Source of the DNA: Vulcanimicrobiota bacterium
Lineage (GTDB): Bacteria > Vulcanimicrobiota > Vulcanimicrobiia > Vulcanimicrobiales > Vulcanimicrobiaceae
Length of the DNA: 64,000 bases
Assembly: GCA_963833095.1 (NCBI GenBank)
Contig: CAWHWQ010000003.1
Location: 1 to 64,000, forward strand
Direction: 5' to 3'
A model generated the notes under the pieces. The model did no database searches. It was not told the DNA's origin and was given only the letters and a program-made list of their open reading frames with translations. Of the stretch, positions 11,483 to 60,787 are shown in pieces (the stretch's first letter is position 1; each line of letters opens with the position of its first letter). The position numbers and the translations under genes are program-made.

Positions 11483-11683
11483 ATGGCTTTGACGGAAATG
11501 GAGAAGACGGTCGTTTCCTGCCTTGCGCAGGGGATGCAAAGTAAAGAGATCGCGGCACACGTAGGGCGAAGCAAACCGACGGTCGAGGGATATATTAGGG
11601 TTCTTTTTGCCAAGACGAACGCGCGCTCGCGAGCACACCTCGTCGCGATCGCTATAGGCATGGATACGGTTAGTGGGAACTGA
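11483..11683 (+). CDS. Stand-alone LuxR/GerE-type helix-turn-helix regulator (66 aa)
   Basis: LTEMEKTVVSCLAQGMQSKEIAAHVGRSKPTVEGYIRVLFAKTNARSRAHLV matches the LuxR C-terminal HTH. Confidence 0.8.
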   Translation: MALTEMEKTVVSCLAQGMQSKEIAAHVGRSKPTVEGYIRVLFAKTNARSRAHLVAIAIGMDTVSGN

Positions 11684-14048
11684 TCGGAATCTGTATCGTT
11701 GCGGCGAACCCGTCGTTGCGGTACGCATTAAGCGTTAGCTGCTGAACCGGCTGCGAGGCACCGAGCGCAAACTGCGTTCCCGGGAATGTCCCCTGCCACT
11801 TGCCCGGACCGACCTGGCTGAGTGACACGCTTGCGTTCGGCGTGCCGATCTGCACGCGCGTCACATTGGTCGTGGTGACGACGGCTATGGATACCGTTGT
11901 GCTCGAGGTCAACACGGTCGGTGAAAGGCGCGCGTAAAAAATCTGCGGCGCGTCTTGCGGTTGGGCGAAATTATTTTGCGGTGCATGGCCAAACTCGAAC
12001 ACGTTCGACGCGGCAAATGCCGACGGCGTTGGTTGCGGCGCGGGCGACGAGCTCGGCACTGGGGTATTGAGCACCGGTAATGGCCCTTGTGTCGGCATGC
12101 CGGTTGGGCGCGCAGCCGGGAGGGCCATGCCGGGCGGAACGGTGGGAAGCGGCTGCGGCGTTGGGAGCCCCATCGTGGCACCCGGCGGCGGCGTCGGCTC
12201 GCCGTCGCGAATGATATGCGGTGTGACGACGATGACGAGTTCGTTGCTCGTATTGTTCGTGTCGTTGTTCTTGAAGAGACCGCCGATGATCGGAATCTGA
12301 CTGAGCAGCGGAAGACTCGTGATCGTGCGCGTGTCCTCGAGTTGAATCAATCCTCCGATGACGAGCGTCTGATTGTCGTGCAGCGTTACGGTTGTCTGCG
12401 CGTTGCGGGTGGAGATCTCCGGCACGCCGTTGGGGTCGCCCGACAGGCTGTTGACGGTTGGATGTACGGTGACGATGATGTTGCCGTCGGCATTGACGAT
12501 CGGCGTAATATCGAGCGTCACGCCGGTATTGAACGACTGAAGCTGCGTTGTGACGACCGTCCCGACGCCGCCGCCCGTGGTCGTGAGGATTGAGAGGGTG
12601 TCGCCGGCCTGGAAATTCGCATCGTGTCCCGAGAGCGTCACGATGCGCGGATCGGCGAGCACACGACCATCGCCGTGCTGGATGAGCAGATTCAACTCGG
12701 CGGTAAGCTGGATCGGCGTTCGGGTGATCGGCTGAATCTTCCCGATGCGGCCTTGATTGCCGTAGGGATCGGGCGTTGGCTGTATCTCTTCAAAGGTCGT
12801 GCTGATCACCGCGTTCGGGAGCTCGAGCCCCAAGTTCTTGGCGAGGCTCCCGTCGATTTCGAGCACTTCGGTATCGAGTTCGACCAGCGGTGGCACGACG
12901 TCGAGCTTGCCGATGAGTTCTTTCGCCAGGCGAATGCTGCTCGGATCGCCGGTGAGAATGAGCGACGCGGAATTTTGCATGACGGTGACGTGCAGCCCCG
13001 AGGCCATTTGTCCAAGCGCCTGCGTAACCGCCGTCGCGATATCTTGAGCCGTGGTCGAGGGCGCCCCGTTGGTACCGGGAATTGCCGATTTTAGCTGAAT
13101 GACCGCCATGTTGCCGTCGCTCATTGCAGCGCCGGATCCGGGCTGCCCCATCATTCCGGCGCCGCCGCTCTTTCCGTCGAGTTGATCGATCGCATCATTG
13201 ATCCGATTCTGCTCGGTTGCCGTTGCGCGCACGGAGATCGCGTTGAGATCGGTGTCGACGACGACTTTCGCGTCGGGATACGTCTTCTGGACGAGATCAC
13301 CGACCGACGCGGCATCGACGCTCTTGAGGTGGTAAACCTGGGTGAAGCTCGAGCCAGCAGGCGGCATGTCGAGTTGCGCTACCAGCGTTTTCGCAGCGGT
13401 GACGGATTGCGGATCACCGGTGATGAGCAGCGATGAACCTGAAACGCTGATCCGTACGCGTGGAACCGTTCGCACAACGGCGCGCGCGACGTACGCGGGA
13501 TGCGCGAGTTTGACGTCGATCGCTTCGACTGGATCGGTCGGCGGGGGTGGCGAGGCCATTGGTGCGGTATCGAGGCTCGCGATGAGGGCCTTAATCTGGG
13601 TTGCATCGAGCGGTTTGGCTTTTAACAGCACACTGTTCTTCGAAGCGACGGTGATCGAGGAAGCCGGAAAGAGCGACGCCACCTTTTGCACGAGCACGTC
13701 GGGCTTGATCGTGTGAAGTGTCACGATTTCGAGCGTTGGTTGGTTTGGATTGCGCACGTCGAGGCCGGAGATAACGGTTCGCACGGTTTGCACGTCATCC
13801 GGTGCGCCTACCACGACGATCGCGTTCGCTCGGGGATCCGTGCGCACGCGCACATGCGGGAAGAGCTGGTGCACGATACCGGCCGCCTGATTCAGAGGCA
13901 TCACCTGCACTTGAATGACGGCGGGAACGGGCGATGGTGTGGGCGCTGGGGCGACATGCGTACCGGCAGCGCCTGCGGGGAGCAGAGCGGCCAAGGATGC
14001 AACCGTGAGCAGCGCGACGATTGACGCGCGGGCGATGAACGAACGCAT
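11670..14048 (-). CDS. Secretin (type II/III secretion system outer-membrane channel) with multiple Secretin_N repeats and a C-terminal extension
   Basis: Signal peptide; repeated D-x-R-x-N-A-I-V-V...I-x-x-L-D N-domains. Secretin core VLADPRIVTLSG, GVTLDITP, TLVIGGLI, LPLLSQIPIIGGLFK and ELVIVVTPHII. Confidence 0.9.
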   Translation of the reverse strand: MRSFIARASIVALLTVASLAALLPAGAAGTHVAPAPTPSPVPAVIQVQVMPLNQAAGIVHQLFPHVRVRTDPRANAIVVVGAPDDVQTVRTVISGLDVRNPNQPTLEIVTLHTIKPDVLVQKVASLFPASSITVASKNSVLLKAKPLDATQIKALIASLDTAPMASPPPPTDPVEAIDVKLAHPAYVARAVVRTVPRVRISVSGSSLLITGDPQSVTAAKTLVAQLDMPPAGSSFTQVYHLKSVDAASVGDLVQKTYPDAKVVVDTDLNAISVRATATEQNRINDAIDQLDGKSGGAGMMGQPGSGAAMSDGNMAVIQLKSAIPGTNGAPSTTAQDIATAVTQALGQMASGLHVTVMQNSASLILTGDPSSIRLAKELIGKLDVVPPLVELDTEVLEIDGSLAKNLGLELPNAVISTTFEEIQPTPDPYGNQGRIGKIQPITRTPIQLTAELNLLIQHGDGRVLADPRIVTLSGHDANFQAGDTLSILTTTGGGVGTVVTTQLQSFNTGVTLDITPIVNADGNIIVTVHPTVNSLSGDPNGVPEISTRNAQTTVTLHDNQTLVIGGLIQLEDTRTITSLPLLSQIPIIGGLFKNNDTNNTSNELVIVVTPHIIRDGEPTPPPGATMGLPTPQPLPTVPPGMALPAARPTGMPTQGPLPVLNTPVPSSSPAPQPTPSAFAASNVFEFGHAPQNNFAQPQDAPQIFYARLSPTVLTSSTTVSIAVVTTTNVTRVQIGTPNASVSLSQVGPGKWQGTFPGTQFALGASQPVQQLTLNAYRNDGFAATIQIPISSH

Positions 14049-14111
14049 GAAGTAGCTTGCACACTTGAATGCGCCTGCACATGGATACCTGCGACAGCGA
14101 GTTATATGTAT

Positions 14112-14138
14112 TGATGATCAAAAGTGATCATCACTTTT
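14112..14138. promoter_or_regulatory. Overlapping palindromes in the divergent secretin/Rhs intergenic region
   Basis: TGATGATCA-aaag-TGATCATCA (14112-14133) and AAAAGTGAT-c-ATCACTTTT (14120-14138) lie in an AT-rich patch. Confidence 0.55.
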
Positions 14139-14229
14139 AATGAGCAGTAATCGTTGAGCATTTCGCAAGGAAGCGCGAGTTTCGAAACGAGAACGCCAGC
14201 GCCATATCGTCTCTTGTGTGGAGAAGTGT

Positions 14230-17200
14230 ATGCGTCGCTTTTTTGCGTTCGTTCTCGTGGCAATATTTTCACTGCAGTCAACCGCGTCGGCCGCGTCGTC
14301 GACGCGGGTCGGCGCTCCGAACCTGCAACCGCTCCTCTCGGCCATCGAGAGCTCGCAGATCTTTGCGCTGGTGACGGGACAAGAGTCCCGTTACGAAGCG
14401 ATGCATGCGCCGGCGCCGACGTTTCCAAAGATTGCGCATACGCGTTCGAATTTCGATGCGAGCCTCTCGCGGCGAGCGATTCTTATACGGCACTCGGGGT
14501 CACCGGGCGCCGGGCCGCAGATGAGCCGCAACTTCGTCGTCCCTCGCGGCGTTGCTGACCCGCTTGCTACGCACGGCCAGGTGCCGCGCCAGATCGGTCT
14601 GCAAAGCGCAGGTGCCTCTCGGGTTGCGGACGCGCGTACCGCGCCTCACCGCATGACCCTCTCGCCGACGAGCATCACCGAGTACGTCGGGCAGACGACG
14701 TACCTCTACCTGGGAAACAACGATGGAACTGCGGCCGGAGCCTCCGGGTGCACTGGAATAGCAAGCTTCAATGGGAACAGCTACGGTGTGACCGGTGTCG
14801 CAGCGGGCACTTGCTCATTGAGGGTTGGATGGAACACGCCAACCGGCGGCAAGGTCGGCGTCGTCAGCGTAACGATCTTGCAACCGACGCCGTCGCCGAC
14901 ACCGACGCGTTCGCCGACACCTACGCCACTCCCAACCGCGACGCCGACACCGGTGTCCACTCCAACGCCCGTGCCGACACCGACGCCGATTCCCGTCACG
15001 CCCACGCCATCACCGACGCCGACCCCCGCTGGATCACCTCTTCCCACACCGGCAACCGGCATCAATCATTGGTGGAGCTACGAGGAGCGCGCCGTGCCGG
15101 GCGTCGGCAAGGCGATGGTCAATGTCGGCAACGGCAACCTGGTCGTGCAGGCAGATGACGTCGATGTTCCCGAGCGTGGAATCGACCTTGCATTCCGCCG
15201 CTCGTACAACGCGATGAGCGGACACGACGCGAGCAGCAGCGACGGCTCCACGCCAAGTGTGTTCGGCAATGGGTGGACGAGCACGTTCGATGCGCACATG
15301 GCCTACAACGCCGTGACTACGACGATGAGCGTCTACGATATCGACGGCGCGCGCTACGACTACGTCCCGAACGGGTCGGGGGGCTGGGCCTCACCGGCCG
15401 GCATGCACGCGCAGCTACTCTACGATGGGTCGTGCGGCTACTATTGGGCTAAACCAACCGGCACGATTTACCATTTCTATTCGCCCTCGCCCTCGGCGAC
15501 AAATTGCCCCTCGGGCAGCGCGCAAACCGCCGGATACTGGGGGCGCATCTATTCGATCTCCGGGCGCAATCACACCAACAGCCTCACCTTGACCTATAGT
15601 TGGAGTGACGGCGTCGGAAATAGTGCCGAGGCACTCACGGCGATTACCGTGACGCACAGCGATGGCCAAGCACTGTCGTTAAAGTTCGCCGTCGTCTCCG
15701 GGACAAGCATCACCGAACTGCAGTCCATCACGCGACCCGACGGCGCCGAGATCAGTTATCAATACGACTCGAGCGGCGATCTGATCGAAGTCGATCGGCC
15801 TGGGAACGCCGTCGACGTCACGCATCAGCAGACGATTACGACCCTGCCCGAGATGTACACCTACACCGGCAAGCATCTGCTGTCGTCGGTGGCAAGTCCA
15901 CGCGACGTGTGGAGTCAACGTTACGCGCCGGGGAACCCCGATGGCGACGTTCTTACTTTCGCGTACGATTCGTCGAATCGCCTCACGGGCATCACCGACG
16001 CATCGTTGGTGGACCCAATTCCGAACGATAACCAGAATGCCCAGCTCCAGCCCACGTTCGGCCAAACCGGCGTCGTGTCGTGGTATCAGGAGACGTTCTC
16101 GGGCTGGGGCAGCGGGACCACGCAGTACACCGATACGGCGGGCCACGCATCGAAGTGGACGGTCGATGCATTATGGCGCGTGACCGCAGAGCCAGGATTT
16201 CAATGGTTCGCTCTGGCTTCAGACCGAGCAATCCTGGGATACCAACAACAACATCATTACGTCGACCGATCCGCGCGGCAAACGACGACATACGCCTACG
16301 ACCAATACGGCGACACGCTCGCCGTCCTGCAACCACAGATAACGACGACGACTGCAGGAACGGTGAATCCGCTCGCGCTCTACTCGTACACGACCAATAC
16401 CGATTCGATCGGCATGACGTATGCGAACCTCGCGTCGTACTGCGATCCGAACTACGTGGCTCTACGCGCAACGTGGAGCGGGACTGGCACGCCACCCGCG
16501 TGCCCGACGGGCACGGGTGCAACGGGCGCGACTCAGTATATTTATGACTACGCTGATAGCAACGAGCCCGCCGGCGTACTGGTGAATACGTACACGCCGC
16601 TCGGATACGAGCATACGATCGGGTATTATTCATCCGCGCAATCCGACAACTACGGTCTTCCGACGTCGGTCACGGGTGCCTCGATCACCCAAAACGACGG
16701 TACCGTGCGCACCCCGACGCAGACCTTCGCATACGACAGCTTCGGGAATCTGACGAGCTACAATGCCGGCAACGGCGCTTGGACGCTGACATACGATACG
16801 CTCAACCGGATGCTGACGCGTAGCGATCCGGATTCAGTTACGAGCTATTCGTGCTACAACGTCGACGGCTCGGTGGCGTATACGGAGAGCGCCTACCAGC
16901 GCTCCTTAGACGGGACGACCGGCTGCCAAAGTACCGCACCCGCCTATGCGGTCTCGCAACTCTACGATGCCGATGGCAACGTGGTGCAGCAAACGCATCA
17001 CTACGGGCAGACCTCAGGTGGAAGTGTCGCTCCAGGCGTGACGCAGAAGTGGTACGACGGCGACGATCGTCTTATCGAAGTCAAGCAGCCGCAGGACACA
17101 ACCGATGTCTACGCGTTTCCCTGGTTGACGCGCTATATCTATGATCTGTCGGAAAATCAGCCCGTCTCGATCACGGGCGGCGCCACGGTTAATGCGTACG

Positions 17201-19506
17201 GTAATCTCTATAAGACGCAGGAATGTCTCCAGGCGACGAGTGTCCTAGTCGCCGGCCCGTTCGCAGGAAAACCATCAGGCAGCCCAACCGTTACGGGAAG
17301 TTGCACGTCATTTTTCGATGTACGTGGCAACAGCTTCGACCCACTCGATCGTGGACTGAACAAATACGAGGTGGCGGCGGGAAGCACACCCGAGTCGACC
17401 GCAACCTATGACACGAATGCCGACCTCGGGCTCCTCAGCGAGAAGACGACCGCGACCGGACAAACCGATACGCTCGCTTACGACGCCGACGGCCATCTCG
17501 CAAGCGAAACCTTCACTGACGGAATCACCCCGAATCGGTCATTCGGCTATGACCCCGACGGCCATCAAACGAGTCTGACATCGACGGCCCTGGGAACGCA
17601 GACGCGTACCTATGATGCGAATGCGCGCCTGATCGGAACGACCGACCCCAGCAGTTTGAGCGATCCGGGTTCCGTGACGTATTCCTATTACCCGGACGGC
17701 ATGCGTCAGGCGCTCAGCTTGAGCATCCCAGCCTTGAACTTCTCGCAGAGTACGCTGTTTGCGTACAACTACCGCGCGGACGGAAAACCGTCGTCGCTGG
17801 TGAGTGCGATCGGCTACGGGAACAAGACCTTCGCCTGGACCTATACTGCAGCGGGCCGAGAACTCACGCAGAGTGATCCATTGACCGGAGCCCAGGTCTA
17901 CGGGAACGACATCAGTCTCGTCCCCGAAACCTACACCTACGACAGCTACGGGCGCGTAAACACGCTGCAGCTGCCGCGCTCGCTAAACCAACTCCAGAGC
18001 TTCACCTATGACGCCGAAGGGAGTGCGGTCAATTTCCAGACCGGCGTTACACCCTATCCGTACGTCTACACCGCAAGAAACGAAACGTGGGGGCCAAACG
18101 CCTATGGCCAAGATGCCAACGGTGCACAGTGTACGCAAGGGAGCAGCTGCACGATAGATTCGCGCTCGAACCAACTACTCTCCGATACCGAGTCCTACAC
18201 GCCGCCGGGCGGCTCAATGGTAACGGCGACGCATACCTATTCGTACGACGCTGCAGGGCGCGAAACGAACGATGCCTCGCAGACGTGCAACGGTTCCGGT
18301 GCGACCGCGCGCACGTACGACACCGACAATCACGTCGCGCAAATGACCGTGAGCGGAAGCTATGACCCCGGCCTAACCACCTATAGCTGCGGAAATCTGT
18401 CGTCAGGTCCCTATACAGACTGCGTACTCTTGGGCGGCGGACGGGCATCTCGCAACGTTGACTAATGCCGCTGGGCCCTATACCGCTCATTGGGATGGCG
18501 ACGACCTGCTTTATGTTGCCGGTCAGCCGCTCACCATCTATATCGGGAAGCTCGGCTTCGTCACGCAAAGCCCGTCGGGATCGGGAACAGCGATCACCGG
18601 TGTATATAACCGCGACTGGAGCGGCACCACCATCGACGAGACCTTCTCACTTGCAACGGATGCTACAGAGGTGGCCTTTAGCGCACTGAATATCAATCGG
18701 CCCTACACTGCGTGCACGTCGGGAAATCCAAAGTGCGGAACGGCAAGCTCATTGCCGGCGGCGGGCGGCCCGAGCAGTGCTGGTGGTACCCCGCCGCAAC
18801 TCGCGCTCGACGCGCAGCGTACCGACGGCTACTACGACGGAGCCAACGTGTTCCAAGCGTGCGCGCGTACGACCCGAGCGCGAATCAATGGACCACGCCA
18901 GACGCATACGCCGGCGATGTGCACGACCCCATGTCACAAAAGCCGTACATGTGGAACAACAACAACGCGATGGCATACAGCGATCCTACGGGCTATGCAC
19001 CTCTCTTTCGAGATGCGAGCAGGGAGGGAGACGCGGCAGAGGACCCCAAACAGGTACACACTGAGGACTCCGCACCGCCGCTGATGTTAATGATACATGC
19101 GGCTGCTCGTGCATATTTGGACGGTCCCGTACTGCCCAGCGGCGGCCTAGTTCGCCCGGGTACGCAGACCGTCTCAGAGCTGGCAGAAAACGCCGATAAC
19201 TACTTGGTTAAAAGCGGCGCCTCAACCACGGAGTCGAGTAGCGACGGTCGAGCCGCGCTCCAAGTGGCTTTCGGTAACGGCCAGACGGGGCAAATGATAT
19301 TCTCTGCTGTCGAAGTCGAGATAGAAGTAAACGACAGGAAGGGAAATGAGATTGTGTCCGACTACAGCGAAGTTCGGTGGCAATGGGACCCTGGGAATTA
19401 CGGGCGGAAGTTTGTCGGCGGTTATCCCGAATACCGAATGGTCAACGCAGGGATAAAGACGTGGCTCCCTGCCCCGCTGCAAAGCGACGTGGAACCTAAG
19501 GAGTGA
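14230..19506 (+). CDS. Rhs/YD-repeat polymorphic toxin with Sec signal peptide (frameshifts near 16200-16270, 18420-18460 and 18855)
   Basis: [21 protein letters not shown] signal, PT-repeat linker, DUF6531-like segment (VNVGNGNL...FRRSYN...FGNGW) and many YD repeats. Core terminus [14 protein letters not shown]...[12 protein letters not shown] at about 18870-18993, then a variable C-terminus. Confidence 0.85.
14884..15050 (+). repeat. Pro-Thr repeat linker within the Rhs N-terminus
   Basis: [35 protein letters not shown]... encoded by degenerate ACGCCG repeats. Confidence 0.85.
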
Positions 19507-19507
19507 G

Positions 19508-19963
19508 ATGCCCATGAACGAATTGGTTCGCAGAACAGCCGCTAGCTTAATGGCGGTGATGCTTTTAGCTGCAGCGGGGACCGACAATTGCTCGGAGCAT
19601 TACGCGGGGCTTATTCGTCAATCCGCACGGTTTGCCGACGCCAAAGATTACGCGAAAGCAGCCGTTTTGCGGGATTCGGCCGGCAAGCTCTTTCAAAGAT
19701 GCTTTGCCGCGGGCACGGCTCCGAAGGACGAAATGTTTCCGTTTGATGGAGCGAACGCATTTACGGTAGCTGGTACGCTATGGCACGTTGCCGGTCACGA
19801 CGATCGCGCGAATACAGCCCTAAAGAGTGCAAAGCTTGCTTTGAAAGCAGTGCTGGCGGTCTCGCCCGAGCGATCGCTGAGCGAGCAGGAGCGACTGTAT
19901 CTTGATCGTGTTAGGACGGTGATCAGCCGGGAGAGTGCGGGGCGTTGGGGCGTTTGGAAGTAG
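19508..19963 (+). CDS. Putative cognate immunity protein with signal peptide
   Basis: Starts immediately after the Rhs stop codon. Hydrophobic N-terminus and helical content. Confidence 0.6.
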   Translation: MPMNELVRRTAASLMAVMLLAAAGTDNCSEHYAGLIRQSARFADAKDYAKAAVLRDSAGKLFQRCFAAGTAPKDEMFPFDGANAFTVAGTLWHVAGHDDRANTALKSAKLALKAVLAVSPERSLSEQERLYLDRVRTVISRESAGRWGVWK

Positions 19964-21344: not shown

Positions 21345-22606
21345 TGAAGCTGGCCCGCTTTCGCGGAGAGTTTTTGGTTAGACATCACGCGGCTTGACTC
21401 ATCCGCCGCTCGAACTCCATGGGTGAGATGTTGCCGATGGACGTGTGCCGGCGGCGTGGGTTGTAAAAGCCCTCGATGAATTCGAAGACTGCGAGAGCTG
21501 CGTCGCGTTGAGTTCTTGAAGCGATGCTTAACGAGCAACTCGCATTCGAGGATCGCGTTGAAACTTTCGCACATCGCGTTGTCGTAGCAATCGCCAACCG
21601 AACCCATCGAGGGCCGAACGCTCGCTTCGTCGCAACGTTTGCCGAAAGCGATCGAGGTGTATTGCGATCCCTGATCGGAGTGATGGATGACGTTCTTCGG
21701 CTTGTCGATTATGAATGGCCATGTCCAGTGCATCGACGACAAGTTCGGCACGCATGTGCGTCGCCATCGCCCAGCCAACAACGCGGCGACTGAAGACGTC
21801 GAGCACGATGGCGAGGAATAGAAAGCCAGTCAGACGTCGGCACGTAGGTGATGTCCGCGACCCAAAGTTCATCCGGCGCGGTCGCCGTAAACTGGCGGTT
21901 GACTAAATCGGGCGCGGGACGTGCATCTTTATCGCGGATGGTCGTCTTGAAATGCTTTGCGGCGAGTTGCCCCTTGGATATTCCGCTCGCGCATCAACCG
22001 CGCTACGCGTTTATCGCTCGCGAAGATATTCTCATCGCGCAGATCAGCTTGAATGCGCGGGCGACCATAGTTTTCAAACGAATCTCGATGGAGAGCTTCA
22101 ATGCGATCGCCAAGGACGATATCGGCTTGACGCCGTTTCGACGGCTGTCGTTTAAGCCACGCATAGTAGCCGCTGGTCGAGACCTCCAGCACGCGGCATT
22201 GCGTGACGATCGGCCAAATGGCGTGGTGCGCTTTCACGAATTCGAAGACTTTGACGGGAATCGAATCGGTCTCGCGTGCGAACCACGCCGCGGCTTTTGA
22301 CAGGATATCTCGCTCGATTTCAAGCTGCTTGATGCGCTTGCGAATCGCGCGATCTCTTCTTGCATCATCGGTCGTTACACCATCGCTACGACGGCCCGCA
22401 TCAAGATCGGCTTGCTTAACCCAATTCCGAACCGTTTGTCGCGCGAGCTTGAATTCGTCGGCAAGTTCGTCTGCGCCGCGACCCGATCGCGCGAGCTCAA
22501 TGATCTTAAGCCGAAAGTCCGCCGGGTAGGCCCGGGGATGTTTTCTGGCCATGGGTGGACCTTTCTCCGCTAAGCGGAAAGTATCCACGGAACCGGGCCA
22601 GCTTCA
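21345..22606 (-). mobile_element. IS3-family insertion sequence
   Basis: Terminal IRs TGAAGCTGGCCC / GGGCCAGCTTCA. OrfA MARKHPRAYPADF and OrfB motifs YGRPRI, HHSDQGSQY and DNAMCESFN. Confidence 0.93.
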
Positions 22607-23000
22607 GTGCGCCGACACTGTGACAGCTATTGGCCTATTTATCCTTTCCCTGGTCACCGACGGTGCCACAGCCATGCGGAATCCAGAAGCCGAAGCGGAA
22701 GAGCCCGTGTACGCTAGCGCTCCGCTTGGGAGAAGAGGCGCCCCGCTCAACACAGCGCCACGTACCAATTCCCCGGGCGCGGTCTTGGGGCGCGCCTATT
22801 CCGGGCACGCGTTTGACCAAATGCAAAGCCGCGGGGTCACGCCAACCGTCGTTGAAGACACAATAAAAACTGGTGTCAAGGCAGACTCAAGAGACGGAAC
22901 AACGACGTATACGTCCAGCGCAAATGGCGTACAAGTCGTCCTGAACAAGGAGGGTAAGGTAGTCACGGTGATAACAGTCGAGAAAACCAAGCCCCGCTAG
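22607..23000 (+). pseudogene. Orphan toxin C-terminus, DUF4258-like putative RNase, truncated by IS
   Basis: YSGHAFDQMQSRGVTPTVVEDTIKTG...VQVVLNKEGKVVTVI pattern; begins at the IS end. Confidence 0.65.
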
Positions 23001-23012
23001 CGAGGATGTTGC

Positions 23013-23456
23013 GTGGCCACTGAACTGAAGATAACAGCGCTCCCCGATTTCTCATTTGCGCTTTTAGTCAAGCAAAGGGCGCACCCGACCTCAAGCGATG
23101 AGGACGATCGAGAACTGCTCTCGTGCGAAGTGAAATTGGCTTGTGGGACGTTCCGAGGAGCGGCGGCGGGTTTCATCCGCATTCGAGAGCTCCGCGAGCT
23201 AAACGAAGCAATCCCACGAGGACTAGCGGGCGCCGAAGAGTTCTGCTTTAAGCCGATTGATGGGCTGTTTGAGCTTGAGCTTTTGACTCGGTCAACAGGC
23301 ACCGTTGCCGGGTTTGTCACAGTTATTCGCGAATTTCCAAGATGCCTACTAAAATGCCATTTTGAAGGCGCTGATCGGAACGCTCTGGAAGCGTCCGGTG
23401 CTGCGCTCCGCGATCTCCTGGACGCTTTTTCAGGCGACGCACAACGGGAACTATAG
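23013..23456 (+). CDS. WapI-like immunity protein
   Basis: Follows the toxin fragment. RAHPTSSDEDDRELLSCEVKLACGTFRG resembles the WapI-family N-terminus. Confidence 0.5.
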   Translation: MATELKITALPDFSFALLVKQRAHPTSSDEDDRELLSCEVKLACGTFRGAAAGFIRIRELRELNEAIPRGLAGAEEFCFKPIDGLFELELLTRSTGTVAGFVTVIREFPRCLLKCHFEGADRNALEASGAALRDLLDAFSGDAQREL

Positions 23457-23564
23457 GTCACGCGTTGCTTGTGTGAAGCGGGCAGTTATGGCCAAGGTCA
23501 TCAGTAACTGGAGTGCTGCATTGTGCCCTCTCACTTTGCAATTGCGGCGGAGCATGATAATCAC

Positions 23565-23841
23565 ACGCGCACGGTTGCGCCTGCAACTCCCGCGTGCCCT
23601 CAACGTTGTCCGGGCCTTCTCTTCCGATGCTGAGGGCAACCAGGCCGGTGTCGTGGATGCCGGCAACGGAGCCGGACCATACTACAATAATTCAATGGCG
23701 TACAGCGACCCTTCTGGCTTCGAGACCATTGAACTCTTCGACAATGAGTTTGGTCGTGGTGTGGGGCACGCAGCTATTTTAATAACGAGTGGACACGGCG
23801 ATAGTGGAAAACTCTATTGCTGGTGTGGCTCTAAAGGGTGA
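23565..23841 (+). pseudogene. Internally deleted Rhs remnant with truncated C-terminus
   Basis: LQLPRALNVVRAFSSDAEG matches [19 protein letters not shown] of the main Rhs and is joined almost directly to NNSMAYSDPSG. Confidence 0.7.
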
Positions 23842-24296
23842 TTACAATGCTGTCCTTCATTCTCTTCGCCCTTTCGGCGGAGCCGCGCGCGGCCGGTGCT
23901 CTTATTCCGCCGGGCCTCTATCAGGGTGGTTCACCCTGGTTCGTCGTCGCTTTCGAGTCCAGGTCATCGCGAACGCGGCTCATGTTCTGGTTCGAGGAGA
24001 AAGTAAACGGGCCGGTCGTCTCAGAAAGCTACGATCTTATTGCTCTGCCATCGTCGCACCGATACCGGATAGCGCATGGTGGCGCGTCGTGTGGCACAGC
24101 CGAAATCAGGCCCGCCAACGGAATTCTGACGATTAGGTACGGCGCGACTTTCCTCAAGGTGGCGCCCACGGATAGGACGGTCGTCAACACGGCCATTCAC
24201 CAGGTTGCGGATAATCAGCGTTACGCCCGCCTTCGACCAAATGGCAGCGCTACCGCCTGGTATTACGGCTCGGCCCTTCCAAAATGCACGAGATAG
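23838..24296 (+). CDS. Secreted hypothetical protein, candidate immunity protein
   Basis: Signal-peptide-like N-terminus; overlaps the stop codon of the Rhs remnant. Confidence 0.5.
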   Translation: MITMLSFILFALSAEPRAAGALIPPGLYQGGSPWFVVAFESRSSRTRLMFWFEEKVNGPVVSESYDLIALPSSHRYRIAHGGASCGTAEIRPANGILTIRYGATFLKVAPTDRTVVNTAIHQVADNQRYARLRPNGSATAWYYGSALPKCTR

Positions 24297-24499
24297 TTCC
24301 AGTCGAAGGGAGGCAGTTGGGGAGGCGCGCGGCTTATAGCGTTTCGTGCTCCCTCTCAAGCAGCACCCGGGTGATTCGGGCGGCGTTGGGAAGCGCGGGA
24401 CACCCAGGGGGCCCGCCCCTGGTGACCTCGACCGTTTCACTCGCCCGCGGAATGACCCGATAACAAAACGCTTGTGGAACTTGAGGAGACGAACCAAGC

Positions 24500-25203
24500 G
24501 TGATGCCCTCAGCATTTGACTTTCGTCGCGGCTTGACGTGCTCTTCAAACGCGAAGGCATGGCCATTGGCTACGATCGGTTCTTGAGAATCTATCGTGCA
24601 AATGGTTTGCAAGTTCGGCCGCGGCGGAACCGGAAAGCGAACTATGTTCGCGGCAACGTTGTGCCGGGGCGGTCAGTAGACCGAACAACGCTGGTCGATC
24701 GACTTCATGCACGACCGCCTGACAAACGGGCGCAAAATTCGAACCCTGAACATCGTAGACGACTTCACCCGCGAATGCCTGGCCTTACGTATCGCCTACT
24801 CGTTTGGGAGCGCCGACGTTATCCGAGAATTCGAGGATATCGCCTTCAAGCGCGGCTTTCCTGAAACCGTACGCTTCGACAACGGCTCGGAATTCACGAG
24901 CCTTGCGATGCTTGGTTGGAGCGCAGAGTGTAGGATTCAGACGCATTTCATTGCTCCGGGCAAGTCGACGCAAAACGCGAACATCGAGTCACTTAACGGA
25001 AAAATCCGAGACGAGCTGCTTAACATGCACTCGTTCACCACGATCTTCGAGGCTCGCCGATCCGCCGAGGCATGGCGCGCCGACTACAACGACGTTCGAC
25101 CGCACTCAGCACTCGATCTGCAGACGCCAAGGGAGTTCGCCGATCGATTCAAAACCAACCACTCCTCACAATTATCCGCGGCCTGAAATTGCCTCACATG
25201 TCA
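24500..25203 (+). mobile_element. Partial IS3-family (IS407-group-like) element, right end only
   Basis: OrfB motifs DFMHD, VDDFTRECLA, RFDNGSEF, IESLNGKIRDELLN and RPHSAL. Right end ...GCCTCACATGTCA resembles the ends of the 28547 element. The left boundary is approximate. Confidence 0.85.
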
Positions 25204-25730
25204 CCGGTTACACCGGCGTAGTCCAAGTAAATGGGAATACCGTTACAATAACCGTTTATGTAAAATTCACCGGAGATACCACAAGCGCGGAGGGGAAAAA
25301 GGCGGAACAGAACTTCGTAAACGGTCTCCTAGCCTACAGTGGCCAGCATGGCGCATTCACGGTCACGATGAACGTCGTCGAAGACACGAAAGACATAAAG
25401 AACAGCAGTCTCATTAACACGATCAATATTCAGGATGGCGATGCGCCATCGAGAGACAATAACGCGGCAAATCTTTGGACAATAGGTACAAGCAAGAGCT
25501 ACAATGAATGGGGCGACATGCATGAGGCAGGCCACGTGATAGGGCTTCCGGATGCATACGGTCAGAAGTTTTCGGATGAATGGAGCGGGAATATTATGAA
25601 GGAGCCTTACGGCAAGGTAGATTCTCGGGATTTTGTCTATATGCAACGCGCGGTAGGCAAGTCGGGATCGGCGACGCTCACTGCTGGAACGGCGTGCATG
25701 TCTTGCATGGTGGACCCGGGCTCGCCGTGA
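25204..25730 (+). pseudogene. Orphan Rhs C-terminus with zinc metalloprotease motif
   Basis: Starts at a (T)GY resembling the end of DPxGY, directly at the IS end. Contains HEAGHVIGLPD followed by NIM. Confidence 0.7.
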
Positions 25731-26227
25731 TGAAGCACCTAGCGCTCGCGGTACTCCTGGCGATTGCTTGCACCGAGCAGGCTTGTGCCGATCTGCCTAC
25801 ACCGACAAAGATACCGGGAGACAAGGCCGGCCCCTTATCAAAGGCTCCGGTTGTGCGGCTTGCGGCATTTCCTAGCTATCTTTCGCCTGAAAAGCGAGCG
25901 TTCCAACAGGGCGGCGACTTCGACACAAAAAGCTACTGCTCTGCGACAATTGACATCGGCGCTGATCCAGGTGTTCAGGCGTCGATCGTAATTCTTGGGG
26001 TCGATAACTACCTGAACACGTATGAGACGTTTCCACAGGGACGCTCCGTTACGCTGACCGGCAATGAGAAGCCAGGCGTTGATAACGTTGTCAGGATTTC
26101 TTTTGTGATCGAACTGCGCCAGAATCAGACCGCATTTCTCATCAATCTCATTGGTGACTCCATCAAGGCTCATAAGAATTTCTTTGTTAATATGACGCCA
26201 GTGGCGTGTGGTGCTTCGGTAAACTAG
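25730..26227 (+). CDS. Secreted protein, candidate immunity to the metalloprotease toxin
   Basis: MKHLALAVLLAIAC signal; start overlaps the toxin stop codon. Confidence 0.55.
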   Translation: MKHLALAVLLAIACTEQACADLPTPTKIPGDKAGPLSKAPVVRLAAFPSYLSPEKRAFQQGGDFDTKSYCSATIDIGADPGVQASIVILGVDNYLNTYETFPQGRSVTLTGNEKPGVDNVVRISFVIELRQNQTAFLINLIGDSIKAHKNFFVNMTPVACGASVN

Positions 26228-26312
26228 AAGCCAAGAAGCGAACGGGTGACCGATTCCTACTTCTTTTTGAAGCGGAGAACCAGGTCGCGGGCGAAGCGCA
26301 GCGCGTCGGCTT

Positions 26313-27149
26313 TGGGGCGGCAGTCTCGTCAACGAGCACTTTTCGTTGCCGGCGCAACTGCCAAGTGGCGAAGTCGCGGCGTTTACCGCGCTCACGCCGG
26401 ATCACATCTACAATCAGTGCTCCGTCGGCGTTTGTGCCGCACTGAGCCAAAAACCCATATGGGGCGGTCCAAGCGATGCGGGTACCAATCCGCCTGGTCT
26501 CCCCGCCGATGCGCGCAGAACGGACGGCTACCTTGTCGACGACAATGTATTTCAAGGCGCTCGAGTCTACGATCCCAACGCCAATCAGTGGACCACGCCC
26601 GACGCCTACGCAGGCGACGTTCACGACCCCATGTCGCAAAAGCCATATATGTGGAACAACAACAACGCGATGGCATACAGCGACCCAAGCGGGTACGAGG
26701 GCAATTGCCCAGGCTGTCAAGGACTAGGGGCCCAGCCCGAGGAGAAGATGCCGGCGAACGCAGAGCACTACGTTAAGTTAGAAGCGACCACCGGTTTTGG
26801 AGCGGTGTCCCTTACATTGACATCCTCCGGTCATGCCTACATCTCGGGCGGCGCTGGTGCGCCAGAGCCTTCGGTGTCTGTAATGGCTGGCACTATCGTA
26901 CGCAACGCGGGCAAAACCGCGGATGACGTCGTTAGTGGCTGGAGCGGGGGCGCCAGCTTCGGCGCAGGAGTGGGATTCGAAGCGTGGGGGAACGCGAGCG
27001 GGTCCGCCGTCGGCGTTGGCGTTACGACACCATGGGCTGGAGGCACGGCTACCTACGGCGTGCAAATCGCAAAGCCACAATCGAAGCCAGGCACACAGGT
27101 TACTAAAACGACCGCTACTAAGAAGGAGGACGCGGCTTCGCCGAAGTGA
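26313..27149 (+). pseudogene. Orphan Rhs module: core 3' end plus Gly-rich C-terminal toxin
   Basis: [48 protein letters not shown], followed by a Gly/Ser-rich beta-type domain. Confidence 0.85.
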
Positions 27150-27418
27150 TGGAGAGCAAAATGGTGATTGGTTTTCTTGCACTGATAATCTTGGGGTTTA
27201 TCGGCGTTAAAAGTGCACGTGGCATTCGCATTGAGGCGCGGGTGCGATATGTGGTGGTTTTCGTGATGCTTTGCGTGGCTGGTGCTACTGCTGCGTATTT
27301 TCATCGCGGTTTGATCGCCGATTGTGCAGGCGTATTCGCAATCGCGCTTGCTGCTGGTTTGGCGGTGATGCACCGTGCCTACCGCGCTGGAAGCGAGACG
27401 CCCGGGGTAAAAACGTGA
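27146..27418 (+). CDS. Small three-helix membrane protein, candidate immunity
   Basis: Overlaps the toxin stop codon; three hydrophobic segments. Confidence 0.6.
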   Translation: MMESKMVIGFLALIILGFIGVKSARGIRIEARVRYVVVFVMLCVAGATAAYFHRGLIADCAGVFAIALAAGLAVMHRAYRAGSETPGVKT

Positions 27419-27666
27419 ACTGGCCTGTCATCACGAACTGGCCCATGGCGATTTTCTTTGCAGTCGTCTGCTTTGGAATATCCGCATTCCTGGGGGGTGC
27501 TGCGCTAGTTGCGATAAAGGGGACGCCTAACTGGAAGCCCGCTCAACTGCTCGCTTGGTACGGAGCTGGCGAGTCGCGCCTGCGTCTGGTTCGCACGATC
27601 GGTGCGGCGCTTGGAGCGTTCCTCATTGGGGCGGTCGTACTTGCGCTTGCACTAGCTTCCAGGTAG
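27415..27666 (+). CDS. Small two-helix membrane protein, candidate immunity
   Basis: GTG overlaps the previous stop codon; two hydrophobic segments. Confidence 0.5.
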   Translation: MNWPVITNWPMAIFFAVVCFGISAFLGGAALVAIKGTPNWKPAQLLAWYGAGESRLRLVRTIGAALGAFLIGAVVLALALASR

Positions 27667-27779
27667 CGATCTTTCGTTCCGATCAAGCATGTGTTCATCG
27701 CGTGACGCTGGGAGCGACAAAAGCCTTGGTTGGAGTAGAAATAGCCGGAGATTTCGTTCAATACGTAAAATGGCGGCGC

Positions 27780-28549
27780 ATGCGCATGTTCATTTCTTTC
27801 GCAGCACTTATCATCGGATTGAGCAGCCCGGCCAGCGCCCAGATGGGACGGCGCCCCCGGCAGCAAGGCCTACCCCTCTCGACGCGGCCCGCGATCGTGT
27901 CGAGGCGATGCTCTCTACGGCGCACGCCGAGGCAAGTTGGTTTAGCGCTGCCCTCCTGGCGCAAGCTTCTGTCGGACAGGTTGAAGCGATTCTGGCGCGG
28001 TTCAGAGGTGCGCTCGGCAACTACGAAAGTTTGGAGGGGGCGAAAGGCGACTACATCGCCCATTTCGCGAACGGTACCGACGAAATATTGATTCATCTCG
28101 ATCCGGACAATAAAATCGATACCGTGACCTTCAAGCTCCCGAAACTTGTCGAGCGCGCGGGCGTGAGCGCTATGCGCCAGCTTTCCTTTCTGAAAGGATC
28201 TTGGGCTTGTACACTGAGGGGCGGCAGTTCCAACGGAACCGTTCAAGAAGTGAGATATTCGTTTTCATCTGATGGGTTGTGGATGACCGAGCTTTCACAG
28301 AGCGCGGGAGCGAAAAAGAAGGATTGGGCAACGCAAATGTGGGGATACGACGTTGGCGCTAGCAGGCTGGTCGCGTATCAATTTGCGGCTGACGGTGTGC
28401 ATACGAAAAACGTTGATGGTTGGATCGATGGTGTCTTTAGGAGCGAACGCGATGATAACGGGGCGATAGTTCGGCTGACACCGACCGGTCCGCAGTCAAT
28501 GCAGTGGTCCATTGAGAGTGCCGATCAATCACGTTTGGTCCGGGAGTGA
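27780..28549 (+). CDS. Secreted hypothetical protein (frameshift near 27850), C-terminus cut by IS
   Basis: MRMFISFAALIIGLSSPASAQ signal in one frame and the body in another. LSFLKGSWAC resembles DUF1579-type domains. The stop codon comes from the IS end. Confidence 0.45.
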
Positions 28550-29744
28550 CGCGTAAGGCAATTTCAGGCCGCGGATAATTGTGAGGGATGGTTGATTTTG
28601 AATCGATCGGCGAACTCCCTGGGCGTCTGCAGATCGAGGGCTGAGTGCGGTCGGACGTCGTTGTAGTCGGCGCGCCAGGCTTCGGCAGACCGACGGGCTT
28701 CGAAGATCGTGGTAAACGAATGCATATTGAGGAACTCGTCGCGGGTCTTTCCGTTAAATGATTCGACGTGGGCGTTTTGCGTCGGCTTTCCCGGATGCGA
28801 TGAAGTGCAGCTCGAATTGCCGCTCTGCGCCCCAGCGCAGCATAGCGTGGCTCGTTAACTCTGAGCCGTTATCAAAGCTGAGATTTTCGGTAGTCCGCGT
28901 TCGAAGGCAATGTCCTCGAACACGCTGATCACGCGCCGACTGCTGAAACCCCGAGTCGACGTCGACGGCCAAGCATTCGCGGGTAAAATCGTCGTCGATG
29001 TTCAAGCACGCGCACCTTGCGGCCATTGGCCAGCGGTCGTGCATGAAGTCGAGCGACCAACGCTCGTTGGGCGCGTGACCGGGGCGACGCGTTGCCGCGA
29101 ACGTAGTTGCACCTTGCGTTTTGCCGAGGCCGCACTTGCAGGCCATTCCCGGTAAATCCGCGAAATCGGTAGTATCCGATAGCAAGCCCTCGCGTATGAA
29201 GAGGATCAAAGGCGTCGCCACCCCCAACGCGGCCGCTGCGCTGCGAGATCCTGTAGCCGTGCTTTGACCGGCTGTCATCGTCCTTGGGTTTGCGAGGTAG
29301 TACAGATTGCTGCGCGTGTAGCCAACAGGGCGCATGCTCGCAACGCTGGGCAACTCCTCGATCTTGCAAGGCTCTCACCGCGTCTTGCCGCTGCGAGGGC
29401 CCCAGCCGTTTTTTTAAACCAGCTCTTTCATCGCATCGATCTCAAGCGTCAGCTTGGCGATGATGCGTTGCATCTGCGCGCTCTCGTCTTCGAGCTGCTT
29501 GAGGCGGACCAGATCGCTGGTCTCAAGGCCGCCATACTGGTCCCGCCAGAGCCGGATCGTGTTGGCGTGGATGCCGTGCTTGCGCCCGAGCTCGCTCACC
29601 GGCGTTCCGGCGTCGACCTCCTTGCAAGAATCGAGACGATCTGCGCCTCGGTAAAGCGACTTTTCGCAACCGCGTGTCTCCTTGCTGGGCTCTACGCCCG
29701 GAAACTCACAACTCCCGCAGGCCCGGATTAGGCCTTACGCGTCA
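28547..29744 (-). mobile_element. IS3-family (IS407-group-like) insertion sequence, frameshifted
   Basis: Perfect terminal IRs TGACGCGTAAGGC / GCCTTACGCGTCA. OrfA HGIHANTIRLWRDQYGGLE and OrfB PNERWSLDFMHD. Confidence 0.92.
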
Positions 29745-29755
29745 GAACCGAAGCA

Positions 29756-30842
29756 GCTCATTAGGATGGTGACGACCTGCTTTACGTATCGGGTCATCCG
29801 CTCTATCCGCTCACGATTTATTTCGAAAAGCTTGGATTTGTTACCGTAGGTTCAGGAATGTCCTCCATTACTGGTGTGTACGATCGCGACTGGGGCGGCA
29901 ATCTCGTAAACGAGCACTTTTCGTTGCCGGCGCGATTGCCAAATGGCGAAGTGGCGGCGTTTACCGCGCTCACGCCGGATCACGTTTACAACCAGTGCTC
30001 AGTGGGCGTTTGTGCCGCACTCAGGGCAAAACCCGTAAGCGGTGGTCCAAGCGATGCGGGTACCAATCCGCCTGGTCTCCCCGCCGATGCGCGCAGAACC
30101 GACGGCTATCTCGTCGACGGCAATGTATTTCAGGGGGCGCGCGTTTACGATCCCAATGCAAATCAGCGGACCACGCCCGACGATTACGGCGGCGACGTAG
30201 ACGCGCCCATGTCACAGAAGCCGTACGCATGGAACAATAACAACGGCATGGCCTACAGCGACCCAAGTGGCTACGACGGCGTCCTATTTCGGGATGCGAG
30301 CAATGAGGGAATGAATGCTGAGGCTCCTTCGCAAGTCGACAGCGAACAGTCGTGCCCCCCAGGCGGCACAGTATGTCACGGCCTACTGGTCATAGCGGAC
30401 GTTCAGGCGAGTGCCGCCATAGCGAACCAAATCCACCGCGTGAATTTGCAGCTTGGGTTCTGGACTGGATTCTTACAAGCTGGCATGTTCTTCCTCGGCG
30501 GCTGGGAGGGTGCGGCTGCTGAAGAAATCGGTGCCGCTCTGACTATAAGAAGAGTCACACTCTATCGTGTCTTTGGTGGCGAAGCAAAGGGCATGGGCAG
30601 ATATTGGACTACAGTAAACCCTGGGTCGGTGTCGGACTACAGAACGGCGGGCTGGACTGTTTCCCGGGAATAGTGGGCAGTTCGTAATAGAAGGTACCTT
30701 GAACAAGCTCGACGGTGTGCAATTCCAAACAGCGGCGTCAGGTCCGGGAGGGATAGGGGGCGGCCTTCCCGAGGTATATGTCCCTAACCCCGCATCCCAA
30801 ATTACAATAACTCGAGTCTCGGGAGCGAATCCTCCATTCTGA
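29756..30842 (+). pseudogene. Orphan Rhs module with putative ADP-ribosyltransferase-like C-terminus (frameshift near 30650)
   Basis: H*DGDDLLY (TGG to TAG) and a core ending AYSDPSG. The CT reads LYRVFGGEA...YWTT..., continuing in another frame as FVIEG...GGGLPEVYVPNP...NPPF. Confidence 0.8.
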
Positions 30843-54139: not shown

Positions 54140-55567
54140 GTGCCTCTCTACGCTGAGCCTCGGGCTTTGCTCGAGGGTGAATTTCCTCTTAGCTCACCAG
54201 AAGCGCTAGCGCTGATACCGCACGCCTTGGCGGTCCGGCACGCGGTTCTTGCCAGCCGCGTCGACGGCGACGAGCTACACATCATCGTTCCGGCTCCCTG
54301 CGACGAGAGCCTCATCGACCGCGTGCACGCCCTGACCGGCCTACGCATCGTTGCGGCCGAGGCGCCGCGCGAAGCCATTCGCAATCGCATCGCCGGCTAT
54401 TACGCGCGACCGGAGCTCGTGTCTGACGAACAAGCGGACGATCCGCCGGCGATACGTGCGGTCGATCGGCTCCACGAAATTGCGCTGCGGCTGCGCGCAT
54501 CCGACATTCATTTAGAGCCGGTTCGCACCGGTGGCCGCGTGCGGCTGCGAGTCGACGGCATCCTCCGCGAGAGCGATCAAATGCCGCGCGAGCTTTTTGC
54601 GTCGATGGTTTCGCGCGTTAAACTTCTCGCGGCAATAGATATTGCCGAACGTCGCTTGCCGCAAGACGGACGCTACCTGCTTGAGCGAGGGGGTCGAACG
54701 CTCGACGCGCGCGTTTCGTCGATGCCGACGATTGCCGGGGAAAAACTGGTGATTCGTCTGCTCGACATGCAGGCGGAGGTTCCCGGGCTTGCTTCGCTTG
54801 GAATGAGTGCGGCGATGCTTGCGCGGTACCGGCAAGCGATCCACGCTGCTCACGGCTTCATCGTGGTCTGCGGTCCGACGGGGAGTGGAAAAACCACGAC
54901 GCTTTATGCCTCACTGGCCGAGCGAAATCTCGATGGTCAGCATATCTGCACGGTAGAGGATCCGGTCGAAGTTCAGATGGCGGGCGTGGCGCAGGTACAG
55001 GTAAACGTGAAAGCGGGCCTGACGTTTGCCTCCGCGCTCCGCGCCTTTCTCCGGCAGGATCCGAACGTGATCATGCTCGGCGAGATGCGCGACGCTGAGT
55101 CGGCAAGCGTTGCATTGTCCGCCGCGCTGTCCGGTCAGCTCGTCATGACGACGCTGCATGCCGGCGATGCGCCTCGCGCGGTTGAGCGTCTGGTGGAATT
55201 CGGTTTGAATCGGCACACACTCGCGGCCGGGCTCTCGGCCATCGTGTCGCAACGGCTCGTGCGCCGGCTTTGCACGGGTTGCCGTCGCCACGTTCCCGGC
55301 GCGCGAGGTCCGGCGTTCGAGTCGTCGGGCTGTACCCGCTGCGATGGCTCCGGTTATCGCGGGCGCGTTGCCATCTTCGAGTTCTTACCGATGACGAATG
55401 CCGTTCGATCTGCAGTTGGGCGGGGGGAGACCGCTCTTGAGCTGGCTGAACTGGCGTCGCGAGCGGGCTACGAGCCGATGTTGACTGAGGGCTTGCAGCT
55501 CGTGGCTCGCGGCGAAACGTCACGAAGCGAACTCGAGCGCGTTCTCGGATCGGGCGAGGTGCAATGA
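54140..55567 (+). CDS. pilB: GspE/PilB family pilus assembly ATPase
   Basis: ASDIHLEP, RLPQDGR, GPTGSGKTTTLY, LRQDPNVIMLGEMRD and CxxC...CxxC motifs. Confidence 0.9.
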   Translation: MPLYAEPRALLEGEFPLSSPEALALIPHALAVRHAVLASRVDGDELHIIVPAPCDESLIDRVHALTGLRIVAAEAPREAIRNRIAGYYARPELVSDEQADDPPAIRAVDRLHEIALRLRASDIHLEPVRTGGRVRLRVDGILRESDQMPRELFASMVSRVKLLAAIDIAERRLPQDGRYLLERGGRTLDARVSSMPTIAGEKLVIRLLDMQAEVPGLASLGMSAAMLARYRQAIHAAHGFIVVCGPTGSGKTTTLYASLAERNLDGQHICTVEDPVEVQMAGVAQVQVNVKAGLTFASALRAFLRQDPNVIMLGEMRDAESASVALSAALSGQLVMTTLHAGDAPRAVERLVEFGLNRHTLAAGLSAIVSQRLVRRLCTGCRRHVPGARGPAFESSGCTRCDGSGYRGRVAIFEFLPMTNAVRSAVGRGETALELAELASRAGYEPMLTEGLQLVARGETSRSELERVLGSGEVQ

Positions 55568-56643: not shown

Positions 56644-56649
56644 TCGAGC

Positions 56650-58541: not shown

Positions 58542-58589
58542 TCTTGGCACTGAACTCTGTTGAGGGCGCAGGCCGGAAACGGAGGGCGG

Positions 58590-59048: not shown

Positions 59049-59049
59049 C

Positions 59050-60781: not shown

Positions 60782-60787
60782 GCCGCG

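Follow-up and report, generated by a model that had tools for sequence, protein, structure and literature searches.

The exit route of signal-peptide Rhs toxins from diderm cells is an open question, and the locus described here names a candidate pore. It lies in 64,000 nucleotides of DNA from a Vulcanimicrobiota bacterium (assembly GCA_963833095.1, contig CAWHWQ010000003.1, positions 1 to 64,000 of the forward strand), which we call the window; in the source genome (G000; 80.7% complete, 8 contigs) it is C3:1-64000. Here a secretin gene stands back to back with a gene for a large Rhs toxin. The original prediction was that this toxin reaches the periplasm through Sec and leaves by a dedicated secretin, perhaps powered by the pilus-like machinery at 54-64 kb. 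We find that the pair is real and conserved, we did not find it in the literature searched, and the export mechanism is plausible as judged from sequence. The question is now testable with two or three genes.

The locus runs from a minimal LuxR-type gene through the secretin, a 181-bp divergent gap, the signal-peptide Rhs and a candidate immunity gene to a TPR fragment:

11483..11683, plus strand: LuxR-type minimal helix-turn-helix (HTH) regulator (GerE, E=4e-11), convergent on the secretin gene and overlapping the secretin stop
11670..14048, minus strand: accessory secretin of 792 residues (Pfam: Secretin_N three times, and Secretin at residues 455-614)
14112..14133, no strand: palindromic operator candidate in the secretin-Rhs divergent gap
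14230..19506, plus strand: Rhs/YD polymorphic toxin gene, about 1,760 residues if continuous; its ATG at 14230 is 181 bp from the secretin ATG
19508..19963, plus strand: candidate immunity protein of 151 residues with a signal-peptide-like start, named from position only; it begins 2 nt past the Rhs stop

This layout had been predicted correctly, both in the divergence of secretin and Rhs at about 180 bp and in the minimal LuxR-type gene on the far side of the secretin. The reported lack of PAAR, VgrG, TpsB or type IX secretion features also stood, as no such Pfam or NCBIfam model matched the locus proteins.

Linkage of the secretin and Rhs genes

The linkage of this secretin clade to Rhs genes is real and conserved across many genera. 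In a first sample of 150 genomes of the family, with at most 6 candidates scored per genome, 59 clade loci were fetched, a set from which two loci of unpublished genomes and three that were short had been dropped; within 3.5 kb, 24 of the 59 had an Rhs gene, 8 a giant S8 protease gene and 4 an S8 lipoprotein gene. The second sample took in 300 genomes of the phylum that were at least 85% complete and was counted by coordinates, with secretin matches at E<1e-10 and linkage at up to 6.5 kb; here 41 of the 92 secretin loci were linked, as were 42 of the 106 Rhs loci. When only new genomes are counted (G151 and above), the figures are 29/58 secretin loci and 29/71 Rhs loci, against a chance expectation of about 0.4 of the 58 secretin loci within 6.5 kb of an Rhs. 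The neighbourhood survey that had been proposed as a check of the prediction supports this linkage. Furthermore, the links in the second sample were divergent in 32 cases and tandem in 9, and because both arrangements occur, the pair must have outlasted rearrangement. Among changing neighbours, only the secretin, the Rhs, a LuxR-type gene and one lipoprotein keep each other's company, and another lineage of Rhs, whose core motif is of the classical kind, adjoins the secretin too (L049).

Co-occurrence points the same way. Across the family, 40 genomes held both genes, 16 the secretin only, 18 the Rhs only and 145 neither, counts in which kin are not independent and one cell contains an unpublished genome (G019). 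Some of the sample tallies likewise take in unpublished genomes, on which no particular claim here depends. Within genus g71 (n=66) the corresponding numbers were 7, 0, 9 and 50 (p=1.5e-5), with an adjacent Rhs in 7/7 genomes that had a secretin C-terminal match, and within the genus of the window (n=12) they were 7, 1, 0 and 4 (p=0.01). The trees of 40 linked secretin-Rhs pairs were correlated (Mantel rho 0.58). Remnants of the secretin or of a companion gene lie beside several Rhs genes counted as unlinked (L099, L108, L128, L132 and L164); they suggest decay of a former pair and leave some unlinked cases unexplained.

Rhs is not the only partner, as 12 of the 59 secretin loci adjoin S8 proteases instead. 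The word 'dedicated' in the original prediction therefore holds in part: the linkage to Rhs is kept, but S8 proteases also adjoin the clade and Rhs genes occur without any secretin found.

The Rhs toxin

The window Rhs is a member of the Rhs/YD polymorphic toxin family. It has RHS repeats (PF05593, 2e-15; TIGR01643 also matched) and a core end finishing in DPxG, followed by a variable tip:

14230..14292, plus strand: Sec-type signal peptide of 21 residues, with a short basic n-region and a strongly hydrophobic h-region
14293..15051, plus strand: basic Pro/Arg-rich pro-region, optional beta domain and PT linker (sequence composition, homologue comparison)
14653-14883, plus strand: the optional beta domain, part of the Rhs N-terminal region
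14884-15051, plus strand: the PT linker, which precedes the Rhs cage
15115..15363, plus strand: DUF6531, the start of the Rhs cage (PF20148, E=7.8e-11 and 9.6e-12 in two scans), the only copy found in the source genome
18946..18993, plus strand: Rhs core-end motif (…YSDPTG), from a motif search; TIGR03696 weak (E=1.4e-4, below cut-off)
18994..19506, plus strand: variable C-terminal tip of 170 residues, the sequence after the core-end motif

As judged from its family, the …YSDPTG core end is probably an autocleavage site.

The prediction of a large Rhs toxin was right about the family, but in this assembly the gene is not one open reading frame (ORF), being interrupted near 16189, 16281-16283, 18419 and 18856. 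Short-read contigs from one study, which possibly includes the source sample, carried 1-base indels near 16187-16189, near 16279-16283 and at 18419 in 4/4 runs and at 18856 in 3/4 runs, the fourth run having no depth there. The four frameshifts are therefore most likely assembly errors. As, in addition, the Rhs ORFs of relatives are uninterrupted (1,600-1,900 residues) and a 1,733-residue Rhs (P0001) bears the tip of the window Rhs at 59% identity, the gene is most likely intact. Loose read ends at 18983 were considered as strain polymorphism, and this was rejected because they match an orphan module at 26646. Elsewhere in the window sdhA, dnaE and probably ftsA are also split across frames (37971-51139), which fits an indel-rich assembly.

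The predicted signal peptide recurs: a simple hydrophobicity rule called one in 50/57 Rhs N-termini. The Tat consensus RRxFL was found in 0/57 homologues by a heuristic, yet 40/50 of the signal peptides contain RR. Nearly all homologues have a basic pro-region (net charge from 0 to +18 among the 50 for which a signal peptide was called), in which a DPxA motif recurs. The small beta domain and the PT linker of the original prediction are both present in the window Rhs, but the beta domain is optional, being missing from most relatives shown, and this beta-rich segment gave no Pfam match at E<=0.01. When the Rhs body was searched against PDB sequences, there were 0 matches.

Rhs tips differ widely among relatives. 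That of the window had no Pfam match and atlas scores below 0.9, and its model, of the alpha+beta kind, is of low confidence (pLDDT 56), with an uninformative best fold-search match (Z 5.2). A search of representatives returned two short fragments (P0002 and P0010), and its other matches were long proteins that agreed over a single short stretch; four of the latter were scanned and are ankyrin-repeat proteins, and the matches were taken as spurious. The gene at 19508-19963 has one homologue (53%), and its position makes its product a candidate immunity protein; like the tip, this product matched no family or fold to which it could be assigned.

Beyond the TPR fragment, IS3-type insertion sequence (IS) elements and three further Rhs core-end modules extend to about 30.7 kb:

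22551..30673, plus strand: array of orphan Rhs core-end/tip modules with IS3-type elements between (core-end motifs at 23680, 26646 and 30224)
22551-23000, plus strand: DUF4258-like ORF in this array (profile scan)

The 5' part of the TPR gene is repeated three times after Rhs modules (20224-20662, 31690-32070 and 33855-34293; 83-88% identity). Such repeats were also seen in congener loci, and may be a recombination handle of the tip array.

The secretin clade

The window protein is a secretin, and by the features tested it belongs neither to a type II secretion system (T2SS) nor to a type IVa pilus (T4aP). Its predicted model (mean pLDDT 68.6) runs from a signal peptide through a PT linker, five KH-like N domains, the barrel and another PT linker to a C-terminal Ig-like domain:

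12903..13928, minus strand: five tandem Secretin_N-type domains, residues 41-382 (secondary-structure repeats in the model; PF03958 three times)
11673..12002, minus strand: C-terminal Ig-like beta-sandwich, residues 683-792, the clade marker (fold alignment and profile matches)

Fold searches with the model returned secretins, with 8CO1 as the top Foldseek match (E 5.2e-27, 16% identity), and the tail aligned with an Ig-like domain of 6tn6 (VIA-align Z 8.5, root-mean-square deviation 2.4, 86 residues aligned). No N0/STN domain was found in the window secretin or its subclade; one is present in 18/38 aligned clade members, some with uncertain start calls. The protein scores below the curated cut-offs for GspD, PilQ, MshL and SctC; against the GspD model (TIGR02517) it reaches 184 bits, with the cut-off at 351.

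The source genome holds three secretins, where the original prediction implied two. The PilQ position, at the end of pilMNOP, is occupied by the paralogue at 63459 and not by the window secretin. A phylogeny against this paralogue had been proposed, and a quick tree placed the window clade apart from both other secretins of the genome (SH-aLRT 97), with long outgroup branches and a careful search unfinished. The third secretin (C4:151717-153579), of about 510 residues, has a PilP-like small gene before it and no ATPase seen beside it. Named homologues of the window secretin are mostly Eremiobacterota. The tail domain was matched in 71/219 genomes of the family and 2/81 in other families (E<=1e-5). 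Weak matches proved to be a related small lipoprotein and suggest that it is widespread in the family; in the source genome one such protein (C1:825603-826135) has a PT linker and an Ig-like domain homologous to the secretin C-terminal domain.

Envelope, secretion markers and motors

The host cells are diderm. LpxC was found in 5/5 genomes and Omp85 in 4/5 (not in the source genome), three of those checked for both being G235, G242 and G256, which were positive; an outer membrane was seen in Vulcanimicrobium, according to the available text of PMC9758169. The background assumed in the original prediction, that Sec-exported YD toxins are typical of monoderms, gives way to Zhang et al. 2012 (PMC3482391), whose available text lists signal-peptide Rhs for all bacteria.

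The proposed check for a type VI secretion system (T6SS) found no such route: VipB was found in 0/1 (the source genome, at the completeness given above) Hcp in 1/51 relatives and PAAR in 0/5 genomes, with positive controls that matched, and Pfam showed no PAAR domain on the window Rhs. TpsB (PF03865) was found in 0/5 genomes by a search without a working positive control, and no Pfam or NCBIfam model of the two-partner secretion (TPS) domain matched the Rhs.

As to a motor, the window contains one candidate cluster:

54140..64000, plus strand: T4aP cluster with PilB, PilT, PilC, pilin, A24 peptidase, PilMNO and its own secretin, given as context only, since in relatives the pair does not need it

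PilB and PilT of this cluster are the only T2SSE ATPases above cut-off in the source genome. The suggestion that this machinery powers export proved not to be general. An orthologue of the window PilB was found in 0/81 genomes of g71 (E<=1e-60, in a search without a positive control), and G244 (94% complete, 4 contigs) gave no match to a T2SSE ATPase, T2SSF or the A24 prepilin peptidase. The sole secretin of G244 belongs to this clade and is flanked by Rhs, the lipoprotein F5 and a mini-LuxR gene. G322 is similar (no T2SSF, A24 peptidase or PilB/TadA-level ATPase) but is in 130 contigs. PF00437 gave PilB-level scores in genera other than g71, and most g71 carriers have a Tad-like ATPase beside its own short secretin; T4aP and Tad clusters each carry a secretin of their own. 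In the secretin locus maps we saw none of gspC/E/F/L/M, no pseudopilins and no prepilin peptidase. No filamentous-phage pI/Zot ATPase or coat gene was found among 48 neighbour proteins selected from 111 listed, a search that did not cover PHROGs.

A second, reduced flagellar-type export cluster without a secretin lies at C1:727588-744010 of the source genome (flhA, flhB, fliR/Q/P/N and fliI/H/F/E, with flgB/C-like genes by inspection). An FlhA-family gene of similar score is the only PF00771 match in G244, G240 and G258. G196, like G235, G242 and G256, yielded neither a secretin nor a T2SSE ATPase, and these four genomes are 93-96% complete.

Regulation and other neighbours

The operator candidate at 14112-14133 is a TGATGATCA-N4-TGATCATCA palindrome. 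No other site in the 2.8-Mb genome is perfect, and 2 matches were found with up to 2 mismatches; the palindrome is kept in the gap of 6/6 congener loci aligned, often in 3-5 copies. We infer that the mini-LuxR protein binds it. Among fetched secretin loci, a set enriched for linked ones, a LuxR-type HTH gene lay within 3.5 kb at 16/56 Rhs-linked loci vs 3/42 others. The operator was also considered as a Fur box, a reading that we dropped in view of its 13-bp repeat period, and a sigma-70 promoter scan stayed at chance level. A look for RNA data sets with this DNA listed none, which bears in no way on expression.

The lipoprotein F5 follows the secretin at 23 of 98 loci in the same enriched set (L150:13648-14310 and 22 others), lying directly downstream of it in many genera, but does not do so in the window. 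Its fold, judged by eye, is cupredoxin-like without copper-ligand-like residues, and it has no Pfam match; F5 is a candidate pilotin or co-cargo. A complex prediction of F5 with residues 298-826 of a relative's secretin scored 0.00, which speaks neither way. An F5-like match in the source genome (C2:276860) was rejected as an orthologue because it keeps copper-ligand-like residues and is located elsewhere.

The giant S8 proteases (L066:13098-17666, L054, L055 and L068) are secreted proteins of 1,400-1,500 residues with beta-rich C-terminal parts, and their genes stand in arrays of up to 5-6 per genome. They were found only in genomes with this secretin clade (14/14 carriers among 301 genomes), and 11 of the 14 come from one genus. 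In genus g25 a secretin subclade is fixed near prfB and secA, with no obvious cargo gene (L045, L139 and L142).

Discussion

From the genomic context we lean, by a small measure, towards reading this secretin as an accessory outer-membrane channel of Eremiobacterota for large Sec-exported cargo (Rhs toxins and giant S8 proteases), working without a dedicated ATPase motor and akin to two-partner secretion. The Rhs would cross the inner membrane via Sec and enter the long five-ring periplasmic vestibule of the secretin, a pore step that we propose from gene neighbourhood. Direction might come from the Rhs cage as it folds outside the cell, or from removal of the basic pro-region, as in two-partner secretion. 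Cleavage at the DPxG motif would then free the tip for delivery to competitors, with kin protected by the product of the downstream gene, and the LuxR-type regulator would control both secretin and Rhs from the palindromic array. A stricter form of this proposal, in which one secretin, self-piloted by its fused Ig-like domain, and one Sec-exported giant cargo suffice for outer-membrane transit, driven by cargo folding and not by an ATPase or pilus, is tentative and to us somewhat doubtful.

Several points weigh against a motorless export channel. We know of no case of a secretin that exports a protein without a motor, and the Tad-type system of most g71 carriers could supply one. In the first sample 23 of the 59 secretin loci had neither Rhs nor S8 within 3.5 kb, many of them at contig ends, and 42 of the 71 Rhs loci in new genomes were unlinked, many on short contigs or with the secretin elsewhere in the genome. 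Some secretins sit at fixed chromosomal positions, for example beside secA, with no obvious cargo. Three genomes of 93-96% completeness (G235, G242 and G256) have Rhs, in at least two cases as a split gene, and no secretin of any kind found, and in five more (G040, G097, G127, G016 and G117) the secretins that accompany Rhs are all of the other kinds. The Rhs of G244 has one frameshift after its signal-peptide part, which was not read-checked. The congruence of the pair trees mostly tracks genus, and therefore speaks for co-inheritance and not co-adaptation. Every absence, moreover, rests on incomplete metagenome-assembled genomes. Finally, in Neisseria, which is a diderm, the signal-peptide toxin MafB does not depend on PilQ for its secretion, according to the available text of PMC4287609.

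Other explanations account for parts of this evidence. The secretin could replace the housekeeping secretin on a resident type IV filament machine (T4aP here, Tad elsewhere), with the pilus pushing cargo out, which generalises the motor model of the original prediction. The full T4aP cluster of the source genome, the PilB- or TadA-like ATPase of most carriers and the N0/STN domain kept in 18/38 clade members agree with this; we nevertheless hold it unlikely, given the lack of T2SSF, A24 peptidase and PilB/TadA-level ATPase matches in G244 and the more fragmented G322, the window subclade without N0, and the secretins that T4aP and Tad clusters already have. It is less likely again that the secretin is an anchor and not an exit, tethering or displaying the Rhs or protease or stabilising the envelope, with export via vesicles, lysis or another route. 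Rhs without any secretin found would fit such a role, as would the Deinococcus secretin of the top Foldseek match (8CO1), which contributes to envelope stability and is accompanied by an Ig-like belt lipoprotein in the available text of PMC10828601, but the clade is common to cargo of unrelated folds (two Rhs lineages and two S8 families) and, by inspection only, no shared anchoring motif is evident in the cargo N-termini.

Both genes could also simply be carried along in the same variable islands and share one regulator, without any physical relation to each other. Against this stand the recurrence of just the secretin, the Rhs, the LuxR-type gene and one lipoprotein amid changing neighbours, the persistence of the pair through orientation flips, its co-loss within genera, and the plasmid records, none of which covers 80% of the secretin (no near-full-length homologue). 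Although IS elements and variable flanks surround many loci, tree congruence tracks genus and about half of the loci are unlinked, we judge such hitch-hiking improbable, slightly more so than an anchor. Least credible, and very improbable in our view, is that the secretin would be the receptor that admits Rhs toxins into neighbouring kin cells, as a kin-recognition or signalling device. The idea is by analogy only, the receptors of CdiA and colicins being outer-membrane proteins; partners that are proteases would hardly suit entry, and a receptor for one's own toxin would presumably be costly to keep.

Secretins are usually viewed as passive parts of T2SS, type III secretion, pilus or phage machines. 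If a secretin does export large proteins without a motor, that view would change. Furthermore, a weapon used in competition would then come to light for a soil phylum that is abundant and barely cultured, and in which T6SS markers were almost never found (Hcp 1/51). No description of the secretin-Rhs pair or of the clade appeared in the titles and abstract openings of the literature searched, which took in few subscription papers and no supplements.

Comparison with known systems

The literature already describes signal-peptide ('T2SS/Sec-dependent') Rhs toxins as a class; in the available text of Zhang et al. 2012 (PMC3482391), Table 1 names no signature neighbour gene for it and the word 'secretin' occurs 0 times. 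The window Rhs shares with this class and with the WapA-type toxins a signal peptide, RHS repeats, a tip that varies, an immunity candidate downstream and orphan tips, and differs from the class in having a secretin as recurrent neighbour, in a diderm. With WapA-type YD toxins it shares the Sec signal peptide (50/57 by the heuristic) but not the monoderm host (LpxC 5/5, Omp85 4/5). The T2SS secretin GspD (TIGR02517; PDB 6I1X, 6HCG and 5W68) likewise has a barrel with stacked N domains and Sec-signal cargo, whereas the window clade has five N domains, often no N0, an Ig-like tail and, in some carriers, no ATPase found. The complex of Deinococcus radiodurans DR_0774 with the Ig-like belt GspP (8CO1), in the available text of PMC10828601, shares the long N-domain stack and an Ig-like module replacing the usual pilotin; here, however, secretin and Ig-like domain form one protein, joined by a PT linker, and the gene travels with toxin and protease cargo. 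Among the fold-search matches listed there was no direct one to GspP.

In Neisseria MafA-MafB (PMC4287609, available text), too, a diderm makes a polymorphic toxin with a signal peptide, and the step across the outer membrane is unexplained, but MafB secretion is independent of PilQ and has no linked secretin. From T6SS-delivered Rhs toxins the window Rhs is set apart in that neither a PAAR/VgrG module on it nor VipB in the source genome was found. Two-partner secretion of the CdiB-CdiA type likewise places an outer-membrane pore gene beside a large Sec-exported polymorphic toxin and has no ATPase; the pore here is a secretin and not an Omp85/TpsB protein, and the cargo is an Rhs cage without a TPS domain match. 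By this analogy, the pair may work in the manner of two-partner secretion, though it is not itself one of those systems.

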